Of a DNA stretch of 64,000 nt, positions 9,658 to 59,764 are shown in pieces. The notes beneath the pieces were generated by a model that made no database searches, had not been told where the DNA came from, and was given only the letters and a program-made list of their open reading frames with translations. The position numbers and the translations under genes are program-made. The DNA is from Candidatus Spongiisociaceae bacterium (GTDB lineage: Bacteria > Actinomycetota > Acidimicrobiia > Spongiisociales > Spongiisociaceae): assembly GCA_965243835.1 (NCBI GenBank), contig OZ251578.1, positions 277,573 through 341,572 of the forward strand. The letters run 5' to 3'. The first letter of the stretch is position 1. The number at the start of each line of letters is the position of its first letter.

Positions 9658-10874
9658 TGGGCTGGGTGACCGAACACGCCCCCCTGTGGGAGGATCTGAA
9701 CGGGTGCATCCAATGCGGCCTGTGCCTGCCGGTCTGCCCCACTTTCCGACTCACCGGCCAGGAAACCGCCTCCCCCCGGGGCCGGTTGACGGCCATGTCG
9801 GCCGTGGCGTTGGGGATGCCCGTGGACGACCGGTTCGCCGGAATGATGGGATTGTGCCTGCAGTGCCGGGCGTGCGAAACCGCCTGTCCGTCGTTCGTCC
9901 CGTTCGGCCGGGCGATGGAGGGGGCCCGGGCGGAGGTTGCGGCCCAGGCGCCGGGGGCGGGGCGGCGGGTGCGCCGTCTGGTCACCACCCGCTTGTTGCG
10001 CAGCCGCCGCGCCCTGCGTTCTCTCACCCTGCTGGCGGGAGCGGCCCGCCGCACCGGCCTGCACCGGCTGGCCCCCCGAACCATACGGGCTTCCATAACC
10101 GGTTTGCGCCCTCCGCCGCGGCGTCCTCGCCCGGAGCTGGCCCGCCCCGCGGCGGGGCGGTCGCGGGGCCGGGCGGCCCTGCTGACCGGGTGCGTGATGG
10201 ACGTTTGGTTTCCCGAGGTGCACGAGGCGGCGGCGGATTTGCTGGCCCGGGCCGGCTACGAGGTGATCGTCCCCCCCGACCAGACTTGTTGCGGGGCCCT
10301 GGCCGCCCACGACGGCTGGGCGGACGAAGCCCGGCGGATGGCGGCGGTCAACCGGGAGGCTTTCCGGGAAGCCGACCTGGTGGTGGCCGACGCCGCCGGG
10401 TGCGGGGCCCATTTGAAGGAATACGGACATTGGACGGAAGGCGGAGAGGAGTTGGCGGCCAAGACGGCGGACATCACCGAGGTGGTGGCGGAGGCGATCG
10501 CCGACGGGCGGTTGCCCCGGTTGCCGGAGGGGGGGAGGGAGGCGGCGGTGCAGGACCCGTGCCATCTGCGCCACGCGCAACGCATCGTCGACCAGCCCCG
10601 GGCGGTGCTGGCCGCGGCCGGTTTGCGTCCGGTGGAGATCGACCCGGGCGGGCAGTGTTGCGGAGCGGCCGGCCTGTACTCCGCGTTGGAACCGGAGATG
10701 TCGGCCATGCTGGGCCGGGCCAAGGCCGACCAGGTGCGGGTCAGCGGGGCGGACACGGTGGCTTCCGCCAACCCGGGATGCGAAATCCAGTTGCGGACTT
10801 TCCTGGGCCGGGAGGCGAGGGTGGCCCATCCGGTGGAGTTGTACCGGGAGGCGTTGGCGGAGGCGGGCCGGTGA
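9657..10874 (+). CDS. glcF: Glycolate oxidase iron-sulfur subunit GlcF
   Basis: Two 4Fe-4S motifs (CIQCGLCLPVCP, CLQCRACETACP) and CCG cysteine-rich domains; 1-nt overlap with glcE. Confidence 0.85.
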   Translation: MGWVTEHAPLWEDLNGCIQCGLCLPVCPTFRLTGQETASPRGRLTAMSAVALGMPVDDRFAGMMGLCLQCRACETACPSFVPFGRAMEGARAEVAAQAPGAGRRVRRLVTTRLLRSRRALRSLTLLAGAARRTGLHRLAPRTIRASITGLRPPPRRPRPELARPAAGRSRGRAALLTGCVMDVWFPEVHEAAADLLARAGYEVIVPPDQTCCGALAAHDGWADEARRMAAVNREAFREADLVVADAAGCGAHLKEYGHWTEGGEELAAKTADITEVVAEAIADGRLPRLPEGGREAAVQDPCHLRHAQRIVDQPRAVLAAAGLRPVEIDPGGQCCGAAGLYSALEPEMSAMLGRAKADQVRVSGADTVASANPGCEIQLRTFLGREARVAHPVELYREALAEAGR

Positions 10875-11506
10875 GCGGGTTGCGGGACGGCTGGTCCCGT
10901 CTGCGGTCGGGGGAGGGGATGCCCGGTTTCCTGCAAGCCGGTTCGGAGTTCCGCCGCTGGGCGGGGCTGTCCCTGCGTTCGCTGCGCACCGTGTGGGGGG
11001 TGGGGTTGGCGGTGGCGGGGACGGCGGTGACCGGAGCCGGGCTGGGCTTGTTGCTGCACGGGACCGGGGTGCGGACGTTGGACATGGCCCGGCCGGATTC
11101 CGAGGCCCTGTCGTCTGGGTTGGTGACCGCCCTCATCGGGACTTTTTTGCTGGGGCTGGCGGTGGAAAGCGGCCTGCGGGTCTTGGAGGACGCGCCCGGT
11201 GTCAAGGCCTGGGAGTCGGCGTTGGCGGCGGCGGCGGGCCTGGTGGCCTTCGTTCCGGTGACGTGGCTGTTGGCCGGGTTCGCCGACCGCCTGGTCGTCT
11301 TCTCCGACCTGTTCGGTTTAATCCCGGAGCAGCTTTTCCTGGTGGGGCGGAGCGGCGTTTCGGCGGCTCTGGCGGCGGGGGTTCCGCTGATGTGGCTGTT
11401 GCGGCATTTCGCCTCCCCCCGCTGGCGGGAGCACGCCCCGGCCCTGCTGTACGCGGCCTGGCTGACCGGTTTCATCTGGCTGTACCGCCCCCTCCTCCCC
11501 GCCTGA
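10871..11506 (+). CDS. Hypothetical polytopic membrane protein
   Basis: GTG start overlapping the glcF stop; several hydrophobic helices; its 3' end is the template for a degenerate copy at 11888-12015. Confidence 0.5.
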   Translation: MSGLRDGWSRLRSGEGMPGFLQAGSEFRRWAGLSLRSLRTVWGVGLAVAGTAVTGAGLGLLLHGTGVRTLDMARPDSEALSSGLVTALIGTFLLGLAVESGLRVLEDAPGVKAWESALAAAAGLVAFVPVTWLLAGFADRLVVFSDLFGLIPEQLFLVGRSGVSAALAAGVPLMWLLRHFASPRWREHAPALLYAAWLTGFIWLYRPLLPA

Positions 11507-11530
11507 CCGCCCATCCCGCGTAACGCCCCG

Positions 11531-11600
11531 CATAGAAACGACCCGCCCCCGGAGGGACGGGCCGTTTTAACCATAGGCATGCCTATGGCGCAGTTCTGAC
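11531..11600. repeat. R1 bipartite palindromic repeat (hairpin aaacgacccgcccc..gggacgggccgttt plus perfect palindrome ccataggcatgcctatgg)
   Basis: Three copies in this intergenic region (R1-R3). Confidence 0.8.
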
Positions 11601-11727
11601 GAGAAAGTATAGACGCCCGAAGGAACCCGTCAAGCCCTTCCCGCGTCGTCGGCAGTCGCGGGTGGAGCGGCAACGTCTGTTGCGGGTTACGACAGCGATG
11701 GGACAAGTGCCGGGGGCAGGCCCCCGT

Positions 11728-11796
11728 CATAGAAATGACCCGCCCCCGAAGGGACGGGTCATTCTGCCATGAGCGTACCCATGGCTGTGATGCGAC
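11728..11796. repeat. R2 copy of the same bipartite palindromic repeat (more diverged)
   Basis: catagaaatgacccgcccccgaagggacgggtcatt...gccatgagcgtacccatggc. Confidence 0.7.
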
Positions 11797-11887
11797 ATAC
11801 AAGTATACATGACCGCGACAACCCCGTCAATTCGGTTTCTCCGCTATCGACGTAACGGTGGGCGACGCCTGCTGCCGCAGGACGGGG

Positions 11888-12015
11888 GATTCCGTTGAGG
11901 CGGTTGTTGCGGCGCTTCGCCTCTCCCCGCTGGCAGGAGCGCGCCCCTGCGTCGCCGCCTGCGGGACGGCTGTCCGGTTTCATCCGGGCGTACCGCCCCC
12001 TCCTCCCCGCCTGGG
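11888..12015 (+). pseudogene. Degenerate (~80% identical) duplicate of the last ~125 nt of the upstream membrane-protein gene (11380-11506)
   Basis: gttgcggcgcttcgcctctccccgctggcaggagc...ccggtttcatccgggcgtaccgccccctcctccccgcctgg against the original gttgcggcatttcgcctccccccgctggcgggagc...ccggtttcatctggctgtaccgccccctcctccccgcctga. Confidence 0.7.
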
Positions 12016-12089
12016 CCTCCGGTCCCGCATACGCCCGGCCCGGGTTTATCATGACGGCTACGGCATAACCGCTGGGGTCCGGTTCCCGA

Positions 12090-12159
12090 CATAGAAACGA
12101 CCCGCCCCCGGAGGGACGGGCCGTTTTAACCATAGGTATACCTATGGCGCAGTTCTGAC
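12090..12159. repeat. R3 copy of the bipartite palindromic repeat; its tail supplies the RBS of the NYN gene
   Basis: Same hairpin; the second palindrome ccataggtatacctatgg carries compensatory changes relative to R1. Confidence 0.8.
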
Positions 12160-12171
12160 AAAGGAGTATAG

Positions 12172-12834
12172 GTGTCTGAAAACCATCTGTCAAATCGGTC
12201 ACGCGTATTCGGCTATGTGGATGGCTACAACGTCTACTACGGATTGCTGAGCAAAGGCTGGAAAAGGTTCTACTGGCTTGATTTACGGGCTTTGTTCACC
12301 ACTCTCTTGCTTCCGGGCGATGAGCTGGTTGCTGTCAAGTATTTCACCGCTAGAGGGCGAGGCCCCCAAGACTCCAACCGTCGCCAAGCTATTTACTTAG
12401 GGGCTCTCTCCTCGTCAGGCGGAGTGGAGATAATCAGCGGCCGGTTCGCCAGGCGGACGCGTAAGCACTGTTCCTACTGCGGGAATTATCTTCAGTGCCT
12501 GAAGTGCGAACGCAGCGACAGGCGGAACCAGGAAAAAACGACCGATGTCGCTATCGGCGTTAATTTGGTTGCGGATGCGCACGAAGGGCTGTACGACAAG
12601 GCCTTTCTGATGACCGGCGACAGCGACCTCATACCGGCGGTCAAGCATGTGGTGGACAGGTTGGGTAAAAGGGTGGTCGTTACCCCGCCGCCCGGACGAA
12701 GATCTGATCACCTGAATGAGGTGGGCTCCGGGGTGGCGTACTTTTCCGTCGGGGCCTTTAGGCGATCCCAGTTGCCGGAAGTGGTGATGGGGAGCGGGGG
12801 GCGGGAGTATCGGCGACCCGCCGCGTGGAGATGA
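12172..12834 (+). CDS. NYN/LabA-like (PIN-fold) nuclease domain protein with central zinc ribbon
   Basis: GTG start with aaggag RBS; FGYVDGYNVYY and TDVAIGVNLVADAHEGLYDKAFLMTGDSDLIPAV (NYN); CSYCGNYLQCLKCE. Confidence 0.7.
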   Translation: MSENHLSNRSRVFGYVDGYNVYYGLLSKGWKRFYWLDLRALFTTLLLPGDELVAVKYFTARGRGPQDSNRRQAIYLGALSSSGGVEIISGRFARRTRKHCSYCGNYLQCLKCERSDRRNQEKTTDVAIGVNLVADAHEGLYDKAFLMTGDSDLIPAVKHVVDRLGKRVVVTPPPGRRSDHLNEVGSGVAYFSVGAFRRSQLPEVVMGSGGREYRRPAAWR

Positions 12835-12844
12835 CGACGCCGGG

Positions 12845-14611
12845 TTACATCCGGTCGGGAATTTCGATGCCCAGCAGGTCCAGCAACAGTTCCAGGGCGC
12901 GGCGGACGACGGCGACCAGGGTAAGCCAAGAGGCCCGCCGGTGCGGGTCGGGTTCGGTGAGGATGTGGCAGGATTCGTAGAAGGAACTGAACCCGGCGGC
13001 CAGTTGGTATGCGTATTCGGCCAGCTGGTTGGGTGCCCGCAACTCCTCCGCCCGTTCCAGGGCTTCCGGCAGGGCCAGCAGATGCAACCACAGGCGCCGT
13101 TCCGGGCCGGCGTCGGGGGCGATGACCGGGCCGGGGGACAGGTCGCGCTCCCCGGCTTTGGCGAGGATGGAGGCCATCCGCACCGCCGCCATCTGCAGGT
13201 AGGGGCCGGTTTTGCCTTCCAGGGAGGTGAACCGTTTCGGTTGGAACACGTAGTTGGAGGTCCGGTTGTTGATCAGGTCCCCGAATTTGAGGGCGGCCAA
13301 GCCCACCTGCCGGGAGATGCGGTCCCGTTCCGCGTCCGGGTAGTCGGCGGCCAGGTCCGATTCGTCCAGTCGCCGGCGGGCTTCTTCGGCCACCAGCCGG
13401 ATCAGATCCTGCAAGGCCAGCACCTCCCCGGCCCGGGTTTTGTAGGGTTTGCCGTCTTTGCCGTTCATCGTCCCGAACGGGATGTGCTCCATCCGGGCGC
13501 GGGGGGCGATGCCGGTGCGCCGGGCGGCCCGGAACACCTGGGTGAAATGGTAGGACTGGCGGGCGTCCACCACGTACAGGATCAGGTCGGCCTCCAGCTC
13601 CTCGACCCGCATCCCAATGGCGGCCAGGTCGGTGGTGGAGTACAGGTAAGCCCCGCGCGAGGTGCGGACGACCAGCGGCGCGATTTCGGTTTTGTCGTCT
13701 TCTTCGGCTACTTCTACGACCACCGCCCCCTCCGACTCGCGGGCGACCCCGGCGGCGAGGGCGCCTTCCACCAGGGGGGCGAGGCGGTCCCGCACATCGC
13801 TTTCCCCATGCCACAAATCGAATTCCACTCCCAGGTCGGCGAAGTCCCGCTTTTGGGAGCGGCGGGAAACGGTCACGAAATGGTTCCACAGGGCTAGGTA
13901 GCCGGGGCGTCCCGCCTGCAGTTCGCCGGTGGCCCGGCGGGCGGCATCGGCGGTTTCCTCGTCGCGCTCGGCTTGGGCGGCGATCTGCGGATACCATTCC
14001 TGCAGGTCGGCCAGCGCGACCGGGGGTTCCTCCGGGTAGGGGCCGGAGCGGTCGGGGTCGAAGTAGGGGAGGTCGGGGAGGCGCCGTTGGGCGGCCACGA
14101 TCAGCATTCCCATCTGCAGGCCCCAGTCCCCGAAGTGGGCGTCCCCCCACACCCGGTGGCCGCGGAACCGGAGCAGGCGCTTCAGGCTGTCGCCGATGAT
14201 GGTGGAGCGCAAATGTCCGACATGCATGGCTTTGGCCACATTGGGCCCGGCGTAATCCACCACGATGTTGAGGGGATTTTCCACCGGCGGCGCCCCCGCC
14301 CGTTGCGGGTCGGCGGCCACCCGGTTCGCATATTCGGCCAAGGCGCGGTCGGTGAGGGAGAGGTTGATGAACCCGGGCCCCGCTACCGAGGCCTCGGCCA
14401 GCCGCGGGTCATCGGCGAGGCGGGCCGCCGCCTGTTCCGCCACCTCCCGGGGATTGCGCCCCCCGGATTTGGCGGCGGGCAGGGCCCCGTTGCATTGGAA
14501 CTGCCCCAAGTCCGGCCGGTTGGACGCCACTACCAACCCGTACCCGGGGTCGAACCCCAAGTCGGCGAAGGCGTTCCCCAGCAGGGCGGAGAGGTCGGAC
14601 AGCACGCTCAT
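12845..14611 (-). CDS. argS: Arginine--tRNA ligase
   Basis: 588 aa; class I aaRS HIGH-like motif (PNVAKAMHVGHLRST) and DALR anticodon-binding C-terminus. Confidence 0.9.
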   Translation of the reverse strand: MSVLSDLSALLGNAFADLGFDPGYGLVVASNRPDLGQFQCNGALPAAKSGGRNPREVAEQAAARLADDPRLAEASVAGPGFINLSLTDRALAEYANRVAADPQRAGAPPVENPLNIVVDYAGPNVAKAMHVGHLRSTIIGDSLKRLLRFRGHRVWGDAHFGDWGLQMGMLIVAAQRRLPDLPYFDPDRSGPYPEEPPVALADLQEWYPQIAAQAERDEETADAARRATGELQAGRPGYLALWNHFVTVSRRSQKRDFADLGVEFDLWHGESDVRDRLAPLVEGALAAGVARESEGAVVVEVAEEDDKTEIAPLVVRTSRGAYLYSTTDLAAIGMRVEELEADLILYVVDARQSYHFTQVFRAARRTGIAPRARMEHIPFGTMNGKDGKPYKTRAGEVLALQDLIRLVAEEARRRLDESDLAADYPDAERDRISRQVGLAALKFGDLINNRTSNYVFQPKRFTSLEGKTGPYLQMAAVRMASILAKAGERDLSPGPVIAPDAGPERRLWLHLLALPEALERAEELRAPNQLAEYAYQLAAGFSSFYESCHILTEPDPHRRASWLTLVAVVRRALELLLDLLGIEIPDRM

Positions 14612-14694: not shown

Positions 14695-16686
14695 ATGCCG
14701 CTACGTGAAACCCTGGACAACATCCGCAACGGACCCACCCCCGGCAACGAGGAGTCGGCCAAGATGTGGATTCTGGTTCCCATCCTTCAGGATTTGGGTT
14801 GGCAACCGTTTGATATCCAGTGGGAATATCAGGTGGGCCGGAGCAAAGGAAGGGTGGATGCCGCCCTAACTGGGCCAAAGGGAGTTACGGCTTTCATCGA
14901 AGCCAAAGCCCCCGGCAACCGTTTGGACGATCACGTCGAGCAGGTTTTGGGATACGCGTTCCAGGAGGGGGCGAACATCTGCGCGCTGACCACCGGCCTG
15001 GAGTGGTGGTTGTACCTGCCCGCCGAGACGGACTACAACTTCGACGAACGCCGTTTCGCCGAGTTGCGTCTCAAGGACGACCCGGTGGAACAACTGGCCA
15101 CCGATTTCGTCGCCTTCCTAGGCAAGGAAACATTATTAGACGGAGAAGCCGAGAAAAAGGCCAAGCAAGTCCTAAAAGCCCGCCGCGAGGCCGAACACTT
15201 GGACAAGGAGGTCCCCGGCATCTGGCGCGAAATGCTGGTAACCCCCGACGAAGAGCTGATAGAGCTGGTAAGCAAACGCGTCTACGAAAAAACTAACCTC
15301 CGCCCCACCTCTCAACAGGTAAACTTCGCCCTCACAGGCCGCCTTTCCCCACCCTCTACCAGCCCACGACGACCCGTTGACCCCCCAAATAAAGAGATTA
15401 AACCACCAACCAGCACGCCAGGACCTACGGCGATTCGATTGTGGGGAGAGACACAATCAGTTAAAAGCAATGCGGATATTCTTAGATGCGTTATTGATGG
15501 TCTTCTCGAACGAGGTGAGACTGAGTTTGAGAATATACCTGGAATAGGCGGTATCACTCGTACTCCTTATCAGCCCAAAATGAAGGATTATTATCAAGTG
15601 GGCTCCACCGGCATTTACTTTGTTACAGGAAAGGGCAGAGCCGTTATTGAAGATACTTATCGGCTATTAGAACACTTTGATTATACCCGTTCAGATTTAG
15701 AAATTATATATGGCAAGATGCCTCCACCAAATGGTATGAAATTGTGGGGAAAATACTATCAAGTTAAATCTTGGATTAGCATTTTGGATATTGTAGTAGA
15801 TTCTCTCTATGAACGCCATGGACACAATTTTGAACCTGGACTCGAGCTTCGTAATCAAAGAGGACCTTATATTTCTCGGGAATCTTCAGATATAGAAAGG
15901 CCCCGTCAGGTAGGCGCAAAGGATCTCTATTTGGATCGTAACATCGGACATTTGGAGGTTAAAGAACGCGCCAAAGAATTGCTTGAGGCTTTTGGATACA
16001 AAGCTTCTGATCTAGAAATTATAGAGAAAGAAAAAGCAAGCGGCTTTGAGTTCTTGGGTAAATACCATGAGGTGAAGCACAATTATCAAGTGCTGGTTGG
16101 TGTCGCCGAAGTTCTCTTCGAACAGCATGGTAACGATTTTGAAGGGGCCCTTGATTTGAAAGGTATATTACGTAAACCTGAGAGTGTCTCTCCTAAAAAT
16201 TATCGCGAAGTGGGCTCTTCGGGTATTTTTGTGAGATTGCCGGACGCTAAATTTTTTTCTAGGTCTTATCAATTGGTAGAATACTTTGGGTATAAAGCCA
16301 GTGCTTTAAGAATTGATACTACAACAGGTTCAGTAAATTATTCTACATTAGATATATCCAGAAGCAAGAGATATGTAAAGCCGGTTCGTATTAGACTGTT
16401 TGACGAGTACCATAAAGTCAAACTATGGAAAGAGATAATAATGCGGCTTGCGGATGTGCTTTATAGACGGCATCGCTCTGATTTTGATCGTGTGTTGGGT
16501 TTAGGGACTGAAAAGAACCCTTATGCTTCTCGCCTTTCTGTAGTGTTGGAGTCAGCGTATGAAGTTGGTAATTCGGGTATTTATATCGAAACAGGGCTAA
16601 GTTCCGATAATGTCAAAAGGCGCTCCAAGAAATTGTTAGAAGAATTCGGATACAAACCCGAAGAGTTAGAAATACTGTTTGATTAG
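14695..16686 (+). CDS. HsdR_N-like (PD-(D/E)XK) nuclease domain protein with Pro/Thr linker and four tandem copies of a novel ~85-aa module
   Basis: N-terminus EYQVGRSKGRVDAALTG...AFIEAKAPG...ALTTGLEWWLY matches the Type I R-subunit N-terminal fold. Four repeats carry (W/F)G.Y..VK......LY.RH..dFe then Y.VGsSGIY....LLE.FGY...L.I. The repeat region is about 40% GC. Confidence 0.75.
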   Translation: MPLRETLDNIRNGPTPGNEESAKMWILVPILQDLGWQPFDIQWEYQVGRSKGRVDAALTGPKGVTAFIEAKAPGNRLDDHVEQVLGYAFQEGANICALTTGLEWWLYLPAETDYNFDERRFAELRLKDDPVEQLATDFVAFLGKETLLDGEAEKKAKQVLKARREAEHLDKEVPGIWREMLVTPDEELIELVSKRVYEKTNLRPTSQQVNFALTGRLSPPSTSPRRPVDPPNKEIKPPTSTPGPTAIRLWGETQSVKSNADILRCVIDGLLERGETEFENIPGIGGITRTPYQPKMKDYYQVGSTGIYFVTGKGRAVIEDTYRLLEHFDYTRSDLEIIYGKMPPPNGMKLWGKYYQVKSWISILDIVVDSLYERHGHNFEPGLELRNQRGPYISRESSDIERPRQVGAKDLYLDRNIGHLEVKERAKELLEAFGYKASDLEIIEKEKASGFEFLGKYHEVKHNYQVLVGVAEVLFEQHGNDFEGALDLKGILRKPESVSPKNYREVGSSGIFVRLPDAKFFSRSYQLVEYFGYKASALRIDTTTGSVNYSTLDISRSKRYVKPVRIRLFDEYHKVKLWKEIIMRLADVLYRRHRSDFDRVLGLGTEKNPYASRLSVVLESAYEVGNSGIYIETGLSSDNVKRRSKKLLEEFGYKPEELEILFD

Positions 16687-16701
16687 AAAGGAAGGAACAG
16701 T

Positions 16702-18960
16702 ATGTCTGGCTTGATTGACGTTAAATTGATAGACGGTACGGCGCGTACTATACGTGAGCTGTTTACCGGGCGTAAGTACGGGATAGAGTACTACCAGCGT
16801 GAATACACTTGGACGGAGTCCAATGTGGTGGAGTTGCTTGATGACCTAACCACTCGTTTTCTGGATGAATATACGGAAGGCGATGAGCGTCATAAGGTCG
16901 CCTCTTACCGTTATTATTTCCTGGGACCAATAGTTACCAACCTATCCGAAGAAGGGATACGTTACTTGGTGGATGGACAGCAACGCCTTACTACCCTAAC
17001 CTTATTGTTGATTTGTCTAGATCATATGTCTAAAGATGAGGATGGGGTGGAAAGTTTGGAACAGTTAGTTTATTCGCAAAAGTTCGGTTCACGCACATTT
17101 AACATAAACGTAGACGAGCGTGAAGAAGTGATGGCTACTATTCTGGATGGTTCTTCCTCTTTTGATACGGAGGACAAGTCGATATCGGTTCGCAATATAT
17201 GGGAGAGATATCAGAATGTAGTGGATCATTTTCCTGAAGAACTCAAAGGAGAATCATTAGTGTTTTTTATTGATTGGTTACTGGAACGGGTGGTACTAGT
17301 CGAGATAGGCACCACCGACCAGGATATGGCATTAGAGGTTTTTGAAACAATGAACGACCGGGGTTTGCGTTTATCCAATACCGATATGTTGAAAGCTTTT
17401 CTACTGAGCAAACTTGACGACCGTCAGCGAATTGAAAAGACGAACGAGCTATGGCGTAATCGTATAACGGAGCTGGCAGATTTAGATAAGAATGCTGACT
17501 CGGATTTTCTGAAGCATTGGTTACGCGGGCATTACGCCGATTCAATCCGGGAACAGAAACGGGGTGCTACTCCACGCGACTTCGATATAATTGGTACCGC
17601 GTATCATAAATGGGTGCGCGATAATTGTGAAAGAATAGGGTTGTATAATTCTAGTGATTTCATGGGTTTTGCCTATCAAGACTTTGACCGAATGAGCAAT
17701 AGATACAAGCAACTTCTGCAGGCTAGCTGGGAAATGACCCCTGGTTTGGAGCACTTATTTTACAACGCCACAGTGGGAATAACACTCCAATACTTGCCTA
17801 TTATAGCGGCTTTAACTCCCGATGATGATGAAGAAATTTTTCGATCAAAAACTCGTCTTATATCTGCTTATATTGACTTGTGGATGGCGAGGCTTATGGT
17901 TAACTATCGTAACTATGGATATTCAACTATTTTACATAGAATGTTTCGATTGAGTAAAGAACTCCGTAATCGAGAATTGCATGAAGTTCAAGAAATATTG
18001 GCGAATTGGGTAGCTGGCTTACCAGATTCCTTTGAGGGCGTTATGCATTTTCGGCTTCACGGTCAGAATCGTTGGCGCATTAAATACTTGTTGTCACGGA
18101 TGACAGCTTGGGTTGAGGCGAATTGCGACGGTAGCGGTCAGTTTGTTGATTATATGGATTCACAACGCCAAAGCCCTTATGAGGTGGAACATATTTGGGC
18201 TAATAAATACGCTCGACATATAGATGAGTTTGACAGCCCGGATGACTTCGATCGTAGTAGAAATCGTTTTGGTGCTTTAGTGCTTTTACCGAAGAGTTTC
18301 AACGCCAGCTATGGTGATAAGCCTTATTCAGAAAAGGTAGAACATTATTACGGTCAGAATTTATTGGCACGGTCGCTTCACCCTAGAACCTACGAGAATA
18401 ATCCTTCTTTTAAAGGATTTATAGCGAAGACAGGGTTGCCTTTTAAACCTTATCCCGATTCTTTTACAAAGGATAATATAGAAGAGAGACAGGATTTGTA
18501 TCGTCAGATTTGTGAGCAGATTTGGGATCCGGACACCTTGGGTTTGGGCGGAGGCGCATCACAATCAATCCCTAAAAGTACTAACCCTAAAATGACTAAA
18601 AGAAATATGTCTACATATGACATTTTGGGATTGGAGTTGTTTGGTGAATATTATCAGGCGGAACATAAATACCCAAAATACCAAGTACTACAAATTGTTG
18701 CTGATGAAGTCTACAAGAGGCACCGTGATGATTTTCATCGGGCGTTGGAGATCGGCGGCTTTGTAAGTGAGCCTTCTCCTCAAAACCCTGATGAATATTA
18801 TAAGATAGGGTCATCGGGAGTATATGTTCTTGCCGCCTCGGGGCTTTTTGATAAGTCGTATAAACTATTGGACCTTTTTGGTTACCAACGGGGGGCTCTT
18901 AGAATTGACACTTCGGAAGGGCCCATCAACCCTTCAACTTATGAGGTGGATGATGAGTAG
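16702..18960 (+). CDS. DUF262/DUF1524 (GmrSD/BrxU-like) Type IV restriction-type protein with one C-terminal copy of the shared module
   Basis: DUF262 hallmark YLVDGQQRLTTLTLLL; DUF1524 His-Me motif YEVEHIWANKYARH; C-terminal LGLELFGEYYQAEHKYPKYQVLQIVADEVYKRHRDDF...YYKIGSSGVYVL...LLDLFGYQRGALRI; RBS gaaaggaagg 7 nt upstream. Confidence 0.8.
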   Translation: MSGLIDVKLIDGTARTIRELFTGRKYGIEYYQREYTWTESNVVELLDDLTTRFLDEYTEGDERHKVASYRYYFLGPIVTNLSEEGIRYLVDGQQRLTTLTLLLICLDHMSKDEDGVESLEQLVYSQKFGSRTFNINVDEREEVMATILDGSSSFDTEDKSISVRNIWERYQNVVDHFPEELKGESLVFFIDWLLERVVLVEIGTTDQDMALEVFETMNDRGLRLSNTDMLKAFLLSKLDDRQRIEKTNELWRNRITELADLDKNADSDFLKHWLRGHYADSIREQKRGATPRDFDIIGTAYHKWVRDNCERIGLYNSSDFMGFAYQDFDRMSNRYKQLLQASWEMTPGLEHLFYNATVGITLQYLPIIAALTPDDDEEIFRSKTRLISAYIDLWMARLMVNYRNYGYSTILHRMFRLSKELRNRELHEVQEILANWVAGLPDSFEGVMHFRLHGQNRWRIKYLLSRMTAWVEANCDGSGQFVDYMDSQRQSPYEVEHIWANKYARHIDEFDSPDDFDRSRNRFGALVLLPKSFNASYGDKPYSEKVEHYYGQNLLARSLHPRTYENNPSFKGFIAKTGLPFKPYPDSFTKDNIEERQDLYRQICEQIWDPDTLGLGGGASQSIPKSTNPKMTKRNMSTYDILGLELFGEYYQAEHKYPKYQVLQIVADEVYKRHRDDFHRALEIGGFVSEPSPQNPDEYYKIGSSGVYVLAASGLFDKSYKLLDLFGYQRGALRIDTSEGPINPSTYEVDDE

Positions 18961-20626
18961 TTTTTTGGTTAAGGGGCCGGCTCAACTGAGCGGGCACTTT
19001 CAGCCGGTGGGGAACAAGAATGCGGCCCTGCCGATTATCGCCGCCTGTTTGCTGGCGGAGGGGCCGGTTACTTTGCGCAACGTGCCGATGATCGGGGATG
19101 TGGAGTCGCTACTGGCCATCCTGGAGGAAATGGGGGCCGCGGTGGACCGCCGGGGAGGGGGAACCATCCGCATCGACGCCCGCAATGTGGACTCGCCTGC
19201 GGTTTCGGCGGAGCTGGCGGGGGCGATTCGGGCCTCCATCCTGCTCGCCGGACCACTCTTGGCCCGGTTCGGGCAGGTGACAATTCCGCCTCCCGGCGGG
19301 GACGTCATCGGGCGTCGTCGCATCGACACGCATGTGCGGGGGCTGACCGCCATCGGCGCCCGCTACAAATACGAGGGCGGGCATTCTTTCACCGCCGACT
19401 CCCTCACCGGCGCCGACGTGTTCTTGGACGAGCCGTCGGTCACCGCCACCGAAAACCTGATAATGGCCGCTTCCAAAGCATGGGGCACCACCGTCATCCA
19501 GAACGCCGCCTGCGAACCGCACATCCAGGACCTGTGTCATTTCCTGAACTCGCTGGGGGCGCGCATCACCGGCATCGGCAGCAACATTCTCACCATCGAG
19601 GGGGCGGATTCGCTGAGCGGCGGCGAGCACGACATCGTTCCCGACCATATTGAGATCGGAAGCATGATCGTGTTGGCCGCCGTAACCGGTTCCGAAATAA
19701 CCATCGGCGGGATACGCTCCGGTGAGATCAGGCCCATCAACCTGGCTTGGCAACGGCTGGGCATCGATTACCACCTGCAAGCGGACGGCTCCGCCCTGGT
19801 CTGCGCCCATCAGAACCTCACCGTGTCCCCCGACTTGGGCGGCGCGGTGCCCAAAATAGAGGACGGGCCGTGGCCGTCCTTCCCGGCCGACCTGACCAGC
19901 ATCGCGGTGGTGGCCGCCACCCAGGCCACCGGTTCCATAATGATCCACGAGAAAATGTTCGAGTCGCGAATGTTCTTCGTGGACCGGCTGATCGGGATGG
20001 GGGCCCGCATCGTGCTGTGCGACCCGCACCGGGTGATGGTGCTCGGCCCCACCCCCTTGCATGCCAGCCCGGTGGCCAGCCCCGACATCCGGGCCGGGAT
20101 GGCCCTGCTCATCGCCGCCCTGGCCGCCGAAGGCCAAAGTCGCATCGATAACGTGGAACAGATCGAACGGGGCTACGAAGCCCTCGACAGCCGACTCACC
20201 GCCCTAGGAGCCCAAATCGAACGCCTCGACGGGTTGGAAAGCACCAGATCGGCGGTAGCCAAAAAACCGAAAACCAGGAAACGTTCCCAAACCCCTCCTC
20301 CTGCGGGTCTGCAAATACTAGGCCGCGAATTGCAACCGACGTCTTGGGCGGATGCAGTCCGGGAGACTGTTCGAGAGATGCTCGCCCGCCACCCCGATAT
20401 TTACCAGGAGACTATGTTGGGCCTCCCACGGTGGATTGATAGTAGTGGCGATAGCCGTCTCGCCTATCCGCTAGAATCCAGGCCGCCACACAGATACGGC
20501 ACAGTTATCGGCGGAGTAAGAGTATTTGATAATTACAACGCAATAGGAGCGAAAGAGGCTGTTGACATTGTTTTAAACGGATTTGGCTACCAAGCCGACG
20601 CCGTTCGCGAATGGACTTTGACATAG
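18950..20626 (+). CDS. murA: UDP-N-acetylglucosamine 1-carboxyvinyltransferase (MurA) homolog with ~130-aa C-terminal extension carrying the shared module
   Basis: [40 protein letters not shown] and a full two-lobe MurA/EPSPS core. Asp replaces the catalytic Cys ([15 protein letters not shown]). Tail ...[30 protein letters not shown]...[12 protein letters not shown]...[17 protein letters not shown]. The ATG overlaps the upstream gene by 11 nt. Confidence 0.85.
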
Positions 20627-20638
20627 GGGCCCCGCTGG

Positions 20639-20700
20639 GGTACAGTTTTTGTGAATGCTCCCCGCCGTCTGGGGCCAACCTGGACTGGCGGGGCTTATTT
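20639..20700. repeat. X1 repeat: hairpin gctccccgcc...ggcggggc with T-rich tail, directly after the murA stop
   Basis: A second copy (X2) lies at 20897-20960; could act as the murA terminator. Confidence 0.55.
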
Positions 20701-20721
20701 ATGGATAGGTGATATCCGATG

Positions 20722-20815
20722 CCTGCTGTAGGGAAACGATCACCGACCGGTTGACGCAGAACATTCGAATGCAACGGTTCAATCGCCAGCCGCACCCCCG
20801 CCGCCGTTGCCTCCT
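20722..20815 (-). pseudogene. Degenerate (~85% identical) duplicate of an internal segment (22575-22670) of the sugar-phosphate isomerase gene
   Basis: cctgctgtagggaaacgatcaccgaccggttgacgcagaacat... against cttgccgcagggaaacgatcaccgaccggtcggcgcagaacat...; the minus-strand translation retains RLAIEPLH. Confidence 0.7.
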
Positions 20816-20896
20816 CCTCCGCCTAAGTGCTCACCCTGTGGCGGAGCCGCGCGAAGCCGTTCGTCAATAGACGATTTGACAGGGGGTCCCGGTGGT

Positions 20897-20960
20897 GTAT
20901 AGTTTCTGTTAATGCTCCCCGCTGTCCGGGTCCTTGGGGCCTGAACTGGCGGGGATTTAG
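20897..20960. repeat. X2 repeat (second copy of the X1 hairpin element)
   Basis: gtatagtttctgttaatgctccccgctgtccgggtccttggggcctgaactggcggggattt. Confidence 0.55.
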
Positions 20961-21137
20961 TTATAGGGGCTTTGCGTTGAGGGGGAGTGAGGGTGAGGGT
21001 AAGTTCCGGTTGGGTTTGCCGGTGTAGAGGAGCACTTGGGTTCTGTCGTTACGGAATCCGAAGGCTCCGCCACCCCCTCCACCCCCACTATCTCCACCTC
21101 CCCCGAGTGTTCCACCCAGACGACGCGGCGTGTTGGT

Positions 21138-21950
21138 TTACAGGTTGGGAGGGACGGTAGTCATTTTATTCAAGGTTTCCTTGTCTAAATCGATAATGTT
21201 ATCCGCTAGTTTAGAAAGCTCACGGGACACACTATTCCGGTTGGGAGTAGCAACCGATACTCGAGTTCCCATATTTTGGGCGACACGTACAGCCTCCGTA
21301 AAGTCCCCATCTCCCGCAATGAGCACCGCCTTATCAATCTTTCCTTGTTGCGCCAACATCACCAAATCCAACACTAGCAAGGTATCCACTCCTTTCTGTT
21401 TGTGTTCTGGCTCGAAAGCCCCATTTTTTTCTAACTCGTTTATGAATTGAATTGGATCCTGCCCTAAATCGGACACCATTTTATTGAGGGTAGCTCTTAG
21501 ATCGCGTTCGTTTTTAGGTCTTATTTCAACTATACGTCCCAGTCGGAGTTCAAAGTCAGGGATCTGCACTAATTCAGACAGGATTTTTCGTTGAAATTTT
21601 GCTGATTTGTGGTAAGCGGGATAAGCACCATCATACCAATAGGTTTTATGAAGGTGTCCTTCGATGCCTCTGCACCAATCTGCAATCTCTTTGGTATTCA
21701 TTTGTATTCGCGTTTTGGGTATTGAATTACCGGAGAAATTTTTGCCTTCCGCTCGTAAATATCCAACATCTATAAAAACGGCATAACGAGAAGATGGTTC
21801 GTTTTGTTCGGCTGTCGTTGTGTTTTCTAGGAGTTTGAAAAAATACGTCTTGGTTTCGCCGATTTTTGCTCGTCTTTCGAGCTTGAGTGTTTCTTCTGGG
21901 TTGTCGGCGATGTCATAGTTTCCTGTATTTATTTTATTGTTTTCTTTCAT
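21138..21950 (-). CDS. NYN/LabA-like (PIN-fold) nuclease domain protein
   Basis: RYAVFIDVGYL...GVDTLLVLDLVMLAQQGKIDKAVLIAGDGDFTEAVRVAQNMGTRVSVA. Start chosen at MKENNK because of the gggagaag RBS; the ORF is open up to 22148. AT-rich. Confidence 0.65.
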   Translation of the reverse strand: MKENNKINTGNYDIADNPEETLKLERRAKIGETKTYFFKLLENTTTAEQNEPSSRYAVFIDVGYLRAEGKNFSGNSIPKTRIQMNTKEIADWCRGIEGHLHKTYWYDGAYPAYHKSAKFQRKILSELVQIPDFELRLGRIVEIRPKNERDLRATLNKMVSDLGQDPIQFINELEKNGAFEPEHKQKGVDTLLVLDLVMLAQQGKIDKAVLIAGDGDFTEAVRVAQNMGTRVSVATPNRNSVSRELSKLADNIIDLDKETLNKMTTVPPNL

Positions 21951-22231
21951 TTTTCTTTCTTCTCCCGTATCGGGTGGATTCCGCTTGTGTGCGGGTATCC
22001 CTTGTAATTTACCTAAAGGGGGGTAAGTTTCGGCTTTGTAAAATATTTCTAGGTGTTTGACAAAAAATCCCATAGGAAGCCCCAACGATGTCCCATAGGG
22101 GACCGTTGCTACCCCCTCTAGGGAAATCCAGTTTAGGGCAACGCCCAATATTTGTCAAACGGGCATCTACCTGGGCTTTTGCCAGGGGCAGGAGCGGGGT
22201 TCGTTGGACGGCGGCCCGTTCAGGGGGACGG

Positions 22232-41917: not shown

Positions 41918-42001
41918 GCCGGGATGCCCGAGCGGCCAAAGGGAGCAGACTGTAAATCTGCCGGCTAAGCCTACGGAGGTTCGAATCCTTCTCCCGGCAC
42001 C
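41918..42001 (+). tRNA. tRNA-Tyr (GTA)
   Basis: Acceptor gccggga/tcccggc, anticodon loop actgtaaatc, long variable arm, TPsiC ggttcgaatcc. Confidence 0.8.
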
Positions 42002-42049
42002 GACCAGAACCGGACCGAACCCGGAACTGGTATCCTGACAAGACCCATC

Positions 42050-42123
42050 GCCCCCTTAGCTCAGTTGGCCAGAGCGCCTCCATGGTAAGGAGGAGGTCTC
42101 CGGTTCGAATCCGGAAGGGGGCT
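42050..42123 (+). tRNA. tRNA-Thr (GGT)
   Basis: Acceptor gccccct/agggggc, anticodon loop atggtaa. Confidence 0.8.
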
Positions 42124-42144
42124 CGACGGCCTTGGGCCGCAGGC

Positions 42145-42218
42145 GGCGGCGTAGCTCAGTCGGTAAGAGCGCTCGACTCATAATCGAGAGGTCGGCAGTT
42201 CAAGTCTGCCCGCCGCTA
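42145..42218 (+). tRNA. tRNA-Met (CAT), elongator type (could be tRNA-Ile2/lysidine)
   Basis: D arm gctcagtcggtaagagc, anticodon loop ctcataa, T arm ggcagttcaagtctgcc; anticodon stem lacks the initiator 3xGC signature. Confidence 0.7.
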
Positions 42219-45801: not shown

Positions 45802-45877
45802 AGGGGCGTAGCTCGAAATTGGTTAGAGCGCCGGTCTCCAAAACCGGAGGTTGGGGGTTCGAGTCCCTCCGCCCCTG
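45802..45877 (+). tRNA. tRNA-Trp (CCA)
   Basis: Acceptor aggggcg/cgcccct, anticodon loop ctccaaa. Confidence 0.85.
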
Positions 45878-51713: not shown

Positions 51714-51800
51714 GCGCTCATCCAGAGCGGTGGAGGGACAGGCCCTGCGAAACCGCGGCAACCGTATGACCGGTGCCAATGCCTGAACGATGAGATAAGC
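51714..51800 (+). promoter_or_regulatory. SAM-I (S-box) riboswitch aptamer
   Basis: ctcatccagagcggtggagggacaggccctgcgaaaccgcggcaaccgtatgaccggtgccaatgcctgaacgatgag matches the S-box consensus (P1 ctcatc/gatgag, GGTGGAGGGAC, GGCAACC, GGTGCCAAT). Confidence 0.7.
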
Positions 51801-57086: not shown

Positions 57087-57105
57087 GACCGGTTGCCGGA
57101 AGAGG

Positions 57106-57663
57106 TCATGGAGGGCTTGGCGGGCGGCTCCGACTCCGCACATTCCGCGCACGCCGGGCCCGGGCGGGGCCCAGGGCCCCGGCGGCGATGTCCCCGCCCC
57201 GGTAGTTGGGGTTGTATTCCTCCAGGTCGGCGGGGGTCAGCACATTGCGGGCCAGCATCGCGTCGCCGAAGCCGGGCGCGTACCGCTCGATTTGCCCCTC
57301 GATCAGTTCCCACATCGCAGGACCCTCCCGGGACTCATCGCGATACCCGTTGGGAACCTGGGCGTACGCCCAGGTGGTGTGGCGCCCCGGCGGGGCCCGG
57401 CCGGGATCGAATAGGCTTTGCTGGCCGACCAGAACGAAGGGATGCCGCGCCGCCCGCCCCGCGGCTACGGAGCGCAGGGCGGCGTCTACCTCCCCGGCTT
57501 CGCCTCCCAGATGCACCACCCCCGCCCGATGGCATTCGGGAGCGGTCCACGGGATGGGCGCGGCCAAGGCGTAGTCCGCTTTGTAGCAAGAGGGTGACAA
57601 CGTTGCCGTTTTGCCGCCTCCCGCTCCTAGTTCAACACGAGGATGGGCGCCAGGTCCAGGCAA
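57106..57663 (-). pseudogene. Remnant (C-terminal ~185 aa) of a phytoene desaturase-family FAD oxidoreductase, lacking the N-terminal FAD-binding domain and with a corrupted 3' end
   Basis: DPGRAPPGRHTTWAYAQVP...IERYAPGFGDAMLARNVLTPADLEEYNPNYRGGDI matches the C-terminal block of the intact paralog at 32643-34217; no Rossmann N-terminus upstream. Confidence 0.45.
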
Positions 57664-57750
57664 ATAGGGGCGGCCGGTGGGACTCCGGGGGGTCCTGTTA
57701 TGCGACCACCCCCGTGTTCGCGCGGAACGGGTTGCCGGTTGAGCCCGGTC

Positions 57751-58836
57751 TCAGGCGACATCGGCGGCGGATGTTGCGACGGGCGGGTTCCGGCGGTCCG
57801 CCAGCCGGGGCGTAGCCTGCGGTGAAGGAGGCGGGTCGGCGCGCAATGCGGACACCGCATTCACCTTGCGTTGCAACACGTTGGTGCGGGTGGAGGTTAG
57901 AGCTCCAAAAGACTTGTTCAAGGCGTTCAAGTCTTTTTCCACTTTGTTCGCCGCTACAATGTAGAGGTCCCATTGTTGTTCAAATTCGGATACCGCCTTG
58001 ATAATTTCCTGTCCGTGGGCCACCATCTGGAACGCGTCCATAACACTGCGGATCATCATCAGAATCGGAAACAGGTTGGCGGGTGAACACAAAACTACCT
58101 TGCGGGTTTCCGTGTATCGCACCAGGGAATTCTTCTGTTGCAAGATGATGCCCCACACCGATTCCACCGGGATGAACAGCAACGTGAACCCCACCCCGTC
58201 CTCATCTTGAACGTATCCCCGCTTTGTTATCGTTTTGACATGGCGATCTACATCAGACATAAACCGTTTTAGATGTTGATCCGCCTCCGGTTTGGTTTCG
58301 GCTTCCGCGTAGCGGCGGTAGTTGTCCAGCGGGAATTTGACATCCATATGCAACACCTTACCCTCCGGTAGCAGGAAAGTGAAGTCGGGCTTTGTACCGT
58401 TGGCTATTTTTGCCTGCTTGCGGTAGTTGACCTCTTCCATCATCCCCGCCGCCCGGATTACGTCCTCCGCCATCCGCTCCCCCCAGAGTCCCCGGTTTCG
58501 GGAATCATCCAGCAGGTTCTGCAACTGGCCGGTAGCGGCGGTCAGGGCGTCGTTGCTTTTGGCCACCTCCGACAGCCGTTCCCCGGTTTTCCCGCCTTGT
58601 TCCGCCAAGTCTTTCATCAGGCCTTGCACCTTGTCCAGCGATTCGCGCATCTGTTCGCGAACCCCTTCCAGGCCGGTCGTCAGGCCGGCGCTCAAAGCCG
58701 CCAGCGGGTCCGGGGCCGGGATCGCCTCCGCCGCTTCCCTCCGCCGGTTGCGTTTCCGCAGGGCGCTTGCCGTCCACCAAACCGCCGGCGCAACCAGCAG
58801 GATAAAGAGCGCAATGCCGATAATGGTGGCATCCAT
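57751..58836 (-). CDS. rmuC: DNA recombination protein RmuC
   Basis: N-terminal TM helix, coiled-coil, C-terminal RmuC block (LLFIPVESVWG...VVLCSPANLFPILMMI). Confidence 0.8.
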   Translation of the reverse strand: MDATIIGIALFILLVAPAVWWTASALRKRNRRREAAEAIPAPDPLAALSAGLTTGLEGVREQMRESLDKVQGLMKDLAEQGGKTGERLSEVAKSNDALTAATGQLQNLLDDSRNRGLWGERMAEDVIRAAGMMEEVNYRKQAKIANGTKPDFTFLLPEGKVLHMDVKFPLDNYRRYAEAETKPEADQHLKRFMSDVDRHVKTITKRGYVQDEDGVGFTLLFIPVESVWGIILQQKNSLVRYTETRKVVLCSPANLFPILMMIRSVMDAFQMVAHGQEIIKAVSEFEQQWDLYIVAANKVEKDLNALNKSFGALTSTRTNVLQRKVNAVSALRADPPPSPQATPRLADRRNPPVATSAADVA

Positions 58837-59087
58837 AGTTGCATCCTCCTTTGCCAATCGGGGCATGTATTGCCGATGTAAGGCAGTGTAAAGAGGGGGT
58901 GTGACAAACGGACGGCTATTCCCGTAACAGCCCCCGTTCCATGGAGGTGACATCCCTTTCAGGTTTCATCACCGGGGCGGCTGTGCACTTAGGGACGATT
59001 TAGCGGAGCTCCGATTACCTAGGAGGGAGACGATCGCGGCCGCGTGGGTGCTGGATGATGTGGATGCGGCCCGGCCCGGCGCGCCGA

Positions 59088-59729: not shown

Positions 59730-59764
59730 ATGGCGTCCTTTCGGTTAGGGGAGTCGGGGAGATT

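Follow-up and report, generated by a model that had tools for sequence, protein, structure and literature searches.

What occupies the 665 bp of apparently intergenic DNA (positions 11507-12171) between a membrane-protein gene and an NYN-domain gene in a Candidatus Spongiisociaceae bacterium (Actinomycetota, Acidimicrobiia)? The window that we analyzed, 64,000 nucleotides of contig OZ251578.1 (assembly GCA_965243835.1, positions 277,573 to 341,572, forward strand), carries here three copies, R1 to R3, of a bipartite palindromic repeat, in which a hairpin is followed on the plus strand by a tight palindrome. An earlier note, made from the letters alone, had argued from paired base changes in the palindrome for selection on structure, and had named a small RNA, a terminator or a dimeric protein-binding site as candidates. 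Our results favor the first of these. R1, R2 and R3 are very probably small-RNA genes on the minus strand, their transcripts being predicted ones, and the stretch would thus be a small-RNA gene array, not junk. The best overall explanation, which we hold with moderate confidence, is an array of genes for an RNA partner that restrains the adjacent NYN RNase.

The three copies, R1 (11526-11602), R2 (11723-11798, a diverged third copy) and R3 (12085-12161), each contain two hairpins, and the sequences quoted for them in the earlier note were found where it had placed them. As it had stated, the palindrome reads ccataggCatGcctatgg in R1 and ccataggTatAcctatgg in R3; the corresponding region of R2 is gccatgagcgtacccatggc. 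The window has three occurrences of the hairpin core GACCCGCCCCCGRAGGGACGGG (11540, 11737 and 12099) against 0.05 expected from shuffles, and two of the tight palindrome CCATAGGYATRCCTATGG (11571-11588 and 12130-12147) against 0.02 expected; R1 and R3 are 96% identical over 75 nt. The unit is longer than had been described, as a minus-strand promoter and degenerate pieces of flanking genes belong to it. When both strands of the 64-kb window were scanned with a covariance model built from R1, R2 and R3 (named the R1 model, here called the three-copy model), no further copy was found, the next minus-strand score being 10.7 bits as against 92-105 bits for the three. R1-R3 are therefore a local array and not a dispersed repeat. 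This bears directly on the suggestion that they are a dispersed or mobile element, such as a repetitive extragenic palindrome or bacterial interspersed mosaic element (REP/BIME), a miniature inverted-repeat transposable element, an integron attC site or a recombinase att site. The copies are indeed palindromic and intergenic, and metagenome contigs of relatives often break near them. However, apart from being confined in the window to this array, the copies sit at NYN loci, show no target-site duplications and have no transposase or integrase nearby, and the pattern specific to the RNA of the window's clade gave 0 matches in the JGI metagenomes and 0 in IMG/VR. We find a mobile origin barely credible.

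The structure of the repeat becomes coherent on the minus strand. There the order is promoter, single-stranded 5′ end, hairpin A (the “tight palindrome”), linker, terminator hairpin and UUUCUAU. The first hairpin had been called imperfect, which holds for the plus strand, whereas the two A·C mismatches in it turn into G·U pairs on the minus strand; the mismatch in the R2 palindrome is likewise a G·U pair there. Folding each copy, a check proposed in the earlier note, gave stable minus-strand structures of -38.8 to -41.1 kcal/mol (z about -5.5 to -6) against -28 to -33 kcal/mol for the plus strand, which is weaker by 6-13 kcal/mol. Moreover, a promoter scan of 10800-13000 returned exactly three sigma-70-like sites, where 0.3 were expected, all on the minus strand and one per copy at equal offset. 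We propose that the three tandemly duplicated genes would each be transcribed on the minus strand from their own sigma-70-type promoter to yield an RNA of ~65 nt. The predicted RNA has a conserved single-stranded 5′ end, AACNGCGCC, a hairpin A of 7-8 bp and its own intrinsic terminator, consisting of a GC-rich 14-bp stem with a UNCG or GNRA loop and the tail UUUCUAU(G), which in the wider family described below is GUUUCUUUUU. Minus-strand loops among the window and closely related copies are UCCG, UUCG, UACG and GCAA, the window's own three being of the UNCG type. A simple terminator scan missed the window copies because their tail is UUUCUAUG; the same scan did detect the RNA terminator at three other loci (L019, L020 and L022).

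The gene that adjoins NYN is R3. Its predicted RNA of ~67 nt (12090..12157, minus strand) would start at ~12157 and end in the U-tract at 12090-12097, and consists of the single-stranded 5′ end AGAACUGCG, hairpin A (12130-12147), the linker UUAAAA and a terminator whose stem joins 12095-12108 to 12113-12126 around a UCCG loop. It scores 104.6 bits with the three-copy model and, at 12089-12154, 31.4 bits (E=1.3e-7) with the model of the wider family; its fold reaches -38.8 kcal/mol (z=-5.96) as against -28 for the plus strand. The predicted promoter (12165..12193, minus) has 11/12 consensus matches, with the -35 box TTGACA at 12193-12188, a 17-nt spacer and the -10 box TATACT at 12170-12165. 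It overlaps the beginning of the protein gene: the -10 box falls between the NYN Shine-Dalgarno sequence (AAGGAG, 12161-12166) and the GTG start codon at 12172, and the -35 box lies within NYN codons 6-8.

R1 (predicted RNA 11531..11598, minus) has the same build, with hairpin A at 11571-11588, a terminator stem of 11536-11549 paired with 11554-11567 around UCCG, and the complement of the U-tract at 11531-11538; it scores 102.1 bits with the three-copy and 26.7 bits (E=5.7e-6) with the family model, folds at -41.1 kcal/mol, and follows a predicted promoter at 11606..11633 (minus; TTGACG, 16-nt spacer, TATACT; 10/12 matches). The upstream membrane-protein gene (end at 11506) and this RNA converge, and the R1 terminator hairpin probably terminates that gene as well. 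R2 (11727..11794, minus) is a diverged paralog whose hairpin A at 11765-11784 consists of GCCAUGGG, UACG and CUCAUGGC, and whose terminator arms, 11734-11746 and 11751-11763, enclose a UUCG loop. Its stem differences from R1 and R3 are all pair-preserving, its fold amounts to -39.1 kcal/mol, and its predicted promoter at 11802..11830 (minus; TTGACG, 17-nt spacer, TATACT) again has 10/12 matches. R2 scores 92.1 bits with the three-copy model and gave no match at E<=0.01 with the family model. We also considered, and rejected, a small protein-coding gene: the minus-strand open reading frames (ORFs) are artifacts of high GC content, none is conserved through the copies, and in R2 a stop codon stands right after hairpin A.

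Relatives show which of these features are kept. Close relatives, all of one lineage, were available as loci on metagenome-assembled contigs whose NYN homologs are 68-89% identical to that of the window. In every such locus the RNA element lies on the strand opposite to NYN and ends ~10 nt away from its start codon, and none of the 14 close copies has lost the promoter hexamers. A covariance-model search of relatives had been another check proposed in the earlier note, and it bore the structure out: copies were found, and in the 13 distinct close sequences all 264 of 264 pair cells are standard pairs, with four pairs changed on both sides and compensatory changes in both stems, outside the loop. 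Within hairpin A these are A-U to G-C in R2, and, by way of U·G intermediates, U-A to C-G together with A-U to G-C in L010 and L005. None of 500 shuffles reached the covariation score of this alignment. In the close copies 100% of cells pair on the minus strand as against 90.5% on the plus strand. G·U pairs of the minus strand that would be A·C on the plus strand make up 25 pair cells, and the opposite holds in 0. Comparison between genomes gives identities of 80-90% for the RNA, 71-75% for the NYN coding sequence and 45-54% for adjacent non-coding DNA. The loop of hairpin A in close relatives is a 5-nt UAUAU, by which the central symmetry is lost. In six of the loci (L005, L007, L010, L011, L013 and L015) a perfectly conserved TATAAT stands on the plus strand ~150 nt upstream of the NYN ATG, just past the RNA terminator, flanked by the inverted repeat GACCC...GGGTC (GACCCTATAATNNAGCGCAAGGGGTC); it may be an NYN promoter with an operator. 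The window and L008 are without this TATAAT and have GGGTTTATCATG at a nearby position.

These comparisons weigh on the idea that it is the plus strand, or the DNA itself, that matters, with the first hairpin acting as a terminator or attenuator before NYN and the palindrome as the operator of a dimeric DNA-binding protein. In its favor, the hairpin is followed by UUUU, R1 stands just after a convergent gene, and R1 and R3 keep perfect dyad symmetry. But the G·U pairs are confined to the minus strand and the plus-strand folds are the weaker ones; in R2 and most relatives the DNA symmetry is lost while RNA pairing is kept, and the 5-nt loop of relatives breaks the center of the palindrome; R2 and R3 have no upstream gene to terminate; and the conserved promoters face the other way. 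We consider such a function very improbable. The terminator of the earlier note thus survives in altered form, since the first hairpin is the predicted terminator of the small RNA itself (and, in R1, probably of the convergent gene too). A dimeric protein-binding DNA site finds no support, because R2 and most relatives preserve RNA pairing by way of G·U and lose the dyad symmetry of the DNA.

The covariation that had first suggested selection on structure deserves a separate comment. The change cited, C..G in R1 to T..A in R3, exists, but it lies at the palindrome center in what would be the apical loop, because pairing the two bases leaves a loop of 2 nt, which an RNA hairpin cannot form. Minimum-free-energy folds accordingly put them in a tetraloop, CAUG or UAUA. 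At the homologous position the wider family has a U-A pair closing an AGC triloop (UA in 67/93), and R1 is the sole C-G. The change is therefore suggestive, not decisive; its symmetry may be due to chance, to a mutation templated by the hairpin (template switch) or to a preference for self-complementary loops. The conclusion drawn from it, selection on structure and a small RNA, is nevertheless supported, on the opposite strand and by evidence other than the change cited.

How did three copies come to stand in a row? The membrane-protein gene before the array, itself downstream of glcDEF-like genes, ends at 11506, and argS follows NYN on the opposite strand. Between R2 and R3 lies a decayed duplicate of the 3′ end of the membrane-protein gene (11883..12036, plus; original 11376-11528; 80% identity over 159 nt; repeat family D1). 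Degenerate remnants of the NYN 5′ end, both on the plus strand and neither with an ORF, stand beside R1 (11603..11690; 59% identity to the true NYN 5′ end) and beside R2 (11799..11880; from the alignment of the three units). These decayed pieces indicate that the array was born by tandem duplication. Only R3 is attached to an intact NYN gene in the window, and R1 and R2 would be leftovers of duplicated modules in which the nuclease gene decayed and the RNA gene was retained. Three close relatives also carry extra RNA copies (three in L005, two each in L013 and L015); there the duplicated module consists of ~320 nt of upstream DNA, the RNA, NYN and the 3′ end of argS, in two or three tandem copies per locus that are 88-97% identical (L005:3255-6919; L013:1-2973; L015:104-2719). 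In the extra modules of the window, L005, L013 and L015, the RNA and its promoter are intact and NYN is deleted or frameshifted; the reverse was never seen. Metagenome contigs of this lineage often end at the RNA-NYN locus, where the repeats probably break assembly.

It could be argued that R1 and R2 are neutral relics, that only R3 matters, and that the similarity of R1 and R3 reflects recent duplication or gene conversion. The array did arise from a duplicated segment (membrane-gene end, RNA and NYN start), R2 has lost the conserved 5′ end of the family and was missed by the family model, and gene conversion confined to the RNA is possible. However, R1 and R3 are 93.5% identical in the RNA and 50-59% in the flanks, and the promoter hexamers of R1-R3 are intact although their spacers have diverged. 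The changes in R2 are pair-preserving in both stems, and the keeping of the RNA with loss of NYN recurs independently in L005, L013 and L015. Neutral persistence of two of the three copies is, in our judgment, distinctly unlikely.

The RNA is not confined to this lineage. Distant NYN homologs (40-42% identity) on unrelated contigs are likewise immediately preceded, on the other strand, by a promoter, an RNA with two hairpins and a terminator, and of 80 further NYN loci retrieved from JGI metagenomes almost all show the element by eye. A family covariance model (named the R2 model) was built from 16 distant sequences, none from the window's clade. It finds the RNA at 86 of 88 NYN loci, both exceptions having less than 62 nt of upstream sequence, and it matches R3 and R1 of the window over their full length on the minus strand, so that the window's clade is a divergent branch of the same family; L074 is intermediate between the two in linker and tail. 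By these matches the window RNAs are divergent members of a widespread, apparently undescribed RNA family. Its members share the 5′ end AACNNCNCC, a hairpin of 8 bp, a linker whose last bases are AC, the terminator and the tail GUUUCU. Most of them have GAUAGCAUC as the hairpin apex, with GUGAGUAGC and GGUAUACC as variants, and the window's clade has GGUAUA(U)CC. The 5′ single strand, the apex and the linker are conserved across genomes of 38-71% GC.

Covariation in the family is extensive. A set of 93 distinct sequences has 96.9% of its pair cells paired and double changes (308 cells) in 16 of 17 pairs, and the covariation score is 0.613 as against 0.205 for shuffled alignments and <=0.114 with the partners slid. 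Since the 93-sequence alignment was fitted to the model, the analysis was repeated with MAFFT and RNAalifold on 20 diverse members, which recovered both helices and compensatory changes in 14/19 pairs. A correctly placed promoter with at least 9/12 matches accompanies 61 of 94 NYN-linked copies and 2 of 469 random sites. One carrier is cultured: plasmid pTHEOS01 of Thermus oshimai JL-2 has a member of 55 bits (L149:1384-1438, minus strand; approximately NC_019387.1:205816-205870), placed 63 nt upstream of and antisense to the NYN gene WP_015065388.1, which follows a helicase-related gene.

The family is absent from Rfam 15, to which it would add a well-supported structured RNA. The best Rfam 15 models on the window RNAs, istR with 22.5 bits and sbrA with 22.4 bits, stay below their thresholds of 45 each; at gathering thresholds the whole window yields only tRNAs and a riboswitch, and L019, L020 and L022 at E<=1 yield only tRNAs. 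A scan for the terminator core in one genome per species returned only generic terminators (Methylobacterium, Micropruina, Acidimicrobiales and an Oscillospiraceae metagenome-assembled genome), none with a second hairpin, and blastn of the family consensus against GenBank phages and complete E. coli genomes returned nothing. The Oscillospiraceae locus (L002:2060-2420), which surfaced solely through the generic terminator pattern GACCCGYCCC...GGGRCGGGTC, is an unrelated tandem duplication of the last ~60 nt of a gene and its terminator, 241 nt apart.

What the RNA travels with is an NYN gene. That of the window (12172..12834, plus; GTG start) encodes 220 amino acids with a CxxC...CxxC insert, matches Pfam NYN at E=2.7e-8, and matches the PADLOC profile HEC-09, a candidate phage-defense nuclease, end to end (E=1.2e-58; residues 10-220 to profile positions 2-203 of 203); R3 lies 10-17 nt from its start codon, and the catalytic Asp and Asn columns are invariant across 16 homologs. 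HEC-09 was described by Payne et al. as a MARF1-like NYN putative RNase embedded in defense systems, as a single-gene candidate and with no mention of a non-coding RNA (bioRxiv 10.1101/2024.01.29.577857). The RNA partner is an addition to that description. At the 86 NYN loci with a family match, 77 have the RNA antisense upstream (gap 16-131 nt, median 63), eight have it sense upstream with the RNA terminator 14-30 nt before the NYN start, and one has it downstream; at some loci one NYN gene is accompanied by two RNA copies. From one locus to another the flanking genes and the GC content are entirely different, so that RNA and NYN travel as a two-gene module. A functional partnership of the two, as judged from this linkage, is quite probable.

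What the RNA does to the nuclease is a more difficult question. We suggest that it restrains the nuclease, most likely in trans on the protein or its expression and not solely by cis-antisense pairing. With a strong promoter for the RNA and none detectable for NYN, the RNA would be maintained in surplus; once it was lost, as might happen if a phage stopped transcription in the host, the RNase would be set free. An antitoxin-like RNA fits the data in several respects: the sense layout is that of type III toxin-antitoxin systems, the predicted RNA promoter is strong, the catalytic residues of NYN are conserved, the nuclease but not the RNA has repeatedly been lost from duplicated modules, and defense genes lie nearby (in the window, a GmrSD gene at 16702-18960, a type IIG-like methylase-nuclease gene at 54108-57086 and an array of clustered regularly interspaced short palindromic repeats, CRISPR, from ~60.6 kb). 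We put an inhibitory, antitoxin-like role at close to an even chance, though just short of it.

The layout in the window's clade invites a simpler explanation, namely that the RNA is only a cis-antisense regulator, type I-like or similar to IS10 RNA-OUT, which pairs with the 5′ leader of the NYN mRNA, or interferes with its transcription, and so blocks translation or triggers cleavage. The promoter of the RNA lies within the NYN start region there, the RNA begins ~8 nt upstream of the Shine-Dalgarno sequence, the plus-strand TATAAT of relatives ~150 nt upstream of the ATG would make the leader fully complementary to it, and 77 of 86 loci are antisense. Yet at eight loci the RNA is sense, with its terminator 14-30 nt before NYN, and at one it is downstream, and because orientation varies in this way cis-antisense pairing is not the general mechanism. 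Pairing in cis would also need no conservation of sequence, whereas the 5′ end, apex and linker are conserved; these single-stranded segments and the apex point to recognition in trans. At most antisense loci, moreover, the RNA's own promoter takes up the ~63-nt gap, and beyond the RNA no promoter for NYN is evident. Cis-antisense control alone would therefore seem unlikely, if a serious contender, and it could coexist with action in trans in the window's clade. An added antisense or transcriptional-interference effect is plausible in that clade, given that the RNA promoter overlaps the NYN start and that relatives have the conserved TATAAT beyond the terminator.

The partnership could also have the opposite sign. 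As a positive cofactor, guide or sensor that the nuclease needs, for instance for target specificity or as a scaffold, the RNA would account equally well for the linkage, and its conserved single-stranded segments could serve recognition. However, these segments are short and nearly invariant, which makes them unsuited to a programmable guide; extra modules keep the RNA, lose the nuclease and never do the reverse, as expected of a harmless or protective RNA and a costly protein; and inhibition explains more easily why phages have RNA copies with no nuclease beside them. That a cloned HEC-09 gave no defense, to which we return below, is neutral on this point. We regard a positive cofactor as improbable.

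The copies just mentioned come from viral contigs. The family pattern matched 45 IMG/VR contigs, of which ~30 were confirmed by profile search, and only one of those confirmed (L129) has an adjacent NYN gene; this retrieval was pattern-based and biased, and some of the “viral” contigs may be misclassified. The orphan copies (contigs L104-L148; for example L124:9744-9801, L119:2378-2434 and L139:3046-3105) are intergenic and stand directly after an ORF on the same strand, in the manner of a terminator module in a 3′ untranslated region. They are without a promoter of their own, 1 of 28 scoring at least 9/12. Their neighbors vary and include NUMOD3 homing endonucleases, the small terminase subunit and structural genes, and Pfam annotation of the genes beside them revealed no common partner. 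Three copies (L104, L105 and L135) lie just before putative free-standing homing endonuclease genes, two of which match Pfam NUMOD3 while that of L104 gave no match. The orphans could be decoys against NYN nucleases, or could have a role independent of NYN. Only tentatively, we extend the argument to propose that the NYN nuclease and the RNA form an unrecognized class of RNA-protein toxin-antitoxin or abortive-infection module found in many bacterial phyla, in which the RNA neutralizes the RNase directly and the promoter-less copies in phage operons are decoys by which the host nuclease is held inactive while infection proceeds.

Our explanation should be interpreted with some caution, since several results weigh against it. 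The promoters, RNA ends and RNA size are predictions. The 5′ single strand of R2 has diverged to CGCAUCACAG, and this copy may be decaying. The close relatives represent one lineage, and alignments A4 and A7 were fitted to models. At L016, where an NYN gene 48% identical stands beside an integrase, an antisense promoter-like site was found with no recognizable RNA, and the 3.4-kb plasmids of E. coli, Serratia and Klebsiella, whose NYN is 33% identical, gave no match with the family model. A consensus scan for an NYN-sense promoter found no consistent position, and overlapping transcription is possible at antisense loci. The ~30 viral contigs carry the RNA without NYN and allow for the NYN-independent role mentioned above. 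Finally, the one HEC-09 representative assayed in E. coli gave no protection against the phages tried (bioRxiv 10.1101/2024.01.29.577857).

The 3.4-kb plasmids are of some interest in themselves. The one retrieved here (L150, E. coli plasmid pKMi006_5, 3461 bp) and similar plasmids of Serratia, Klebsiella and Salmonella hold little beyond an NYN gene (33% identical to P0019), a gene for a VbhA-family antitoxin and a helix-turn-helix gene, with several strong hairpins upstream of NYN. They may represent a different control of the same kind of nuclease.

For HEC-09, earlier treated as a single-protein system and without demonstrated activity so far, the data supply a putative RNA partner that would explain its genetics. 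As the RNA is present at 86 of 88 loci, it needs to be considered in any functional test: whether NYN is cloned with or without its upstream region, or how the host affects the RNA promoter, could decide if the system appears inert, toxic or protective. Should the antitoxin reading be true, systems with RNA antitoxins would come to include the NYN (PIN-like) nuclease fold, here with an RNA that is not repetitive, and the phage orphan copies would constitute a ready set of candidate anti-defense RNAs.

Other parts of the window also carry features related to defense. A stretch of low GC content downstream of argS (14695-22148; 41-57% as against ~70% elsewhere) encodes an unannotated protein of 663 amino acids with internal repeats (14695-16686), the GmrSD-type nuclease (16702-18960), aroA and a second, unrelated NYN protein of 336 amino acids (21138-22148, minus), near which no RNA-model match was found. 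What stands between argS and aroA varies among relatives (GmrSD, an HsdR_N-like gene, unknown genes), so that the slot looks like a variable defense hotspot. A second low-GC region (54108-59729) is a defense-like cluster with a 992-amino-acid N6-methylase/Eco57I-like (type IIG-like) protein, an RmuC-family protein (57751-58953, minus) and a phospholipase D (PLD)/NgoFVII-like nuclease (59088-59729, minus). A CRISPR-like array follows from 60650 to the window end at 64000, with at least 46 units at a period of 72-75 nt, unique spacers and an invariant repeat of ~36 nt, GCCGCAATGAGGGAGGGGCGAATTCGCCCCTCGTAG; it first surfaced as periodic weak matches of the RNA model. The ORFs right upstream of it (59088-60538) encode the PLD-like nuclease and a short-chain dehydrogenase, and not Cas proteins. 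At Rfam gathering thresholds the window further contains, on the plus strand, an S-adenosylmethionine (SAM, S-box) riboswitch at 51715-51796 and four tRNA genes at 41918-42218 and 45802-45877.

It remains to compare the RNA-NYN module with known systems. Full-text searches for literature linking NYN with an RNA antitoxin, a non-coding RNA, a type III toxin-antitoxin system or an RNA motif returned nothing relevant. Tandem small-RNA paralogs such as PrrF1/PrrF2, OmrA/OmrB and LhrC1-5 are near-identical genes arranged head to tail with their own promoters and terminators. R1-R3 resemble them in being tandem, each with a predicted promoter and terminator, but differ in that the extra copies stem from duplication of the whole RNA-nuclease module, with the nuclease then lost. 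In AbiF-like systems a HEPN RNase of defense is coupled to a conserved structured non-coding RNA encoded upstream; the likeness is that of an RNase beside a non-coding RNA, while the nuclease superfamily and the RNA are different.

In the window's clade the arrangement is like that of the type I system SymE/SymR and of IS10 RNA-OUT/RNA-IN, in that the predicted promoter of the RNA stands within the 5′ end of the protein gene and points out of it, and that complementarity between RNA and leader would reach as far as the ribosome-binding site. Few type I toxins have been linked to RNA cleavage, and SymE is among them. The partner here, however, is an NYN enzyme of 220 amino acids and not a small hydrophobic or membrane peptide, orientation varies across the family, and the RNA is conserved beyond the needs of cis-pairing.

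The likeness to type III toxin-antitoxin systems (ToxIN, CptIN and TenpIN) concerns the combination of a putative RNase with a gene for a small structured RNA in defense contexts, and, at eight loci, the order promoter, RNA, terminator and nuclease gene, with 14-30 nt from terminator to start codon. In the ToxIN layout, terminator read-through sets the ratio of RNA to toxin. Phage phiTE carries a pseudo-ToxI, which the phage-borne copies described here recall. The module differs from type III systems in its nuclease, which is of the NYN (PIN-like) and not the ToxN-like kind, in its RNA, which is a single two-hairpin unit with its own terminator and not a series of tandem 34-36-nt repeats processed by the toxin, and in its layout, which is divergent/antisense at 77 of 86 loci and same-strand at 8 of 86. 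In conclusion, the anatomy of the predicted RNA genes and their linkage to NYN are solid and the mechanism is what we infer from them: the RNA-NYN system is type III-like in logic, without the same-strand repeat array, and type I-like in layout in the window's clade only.

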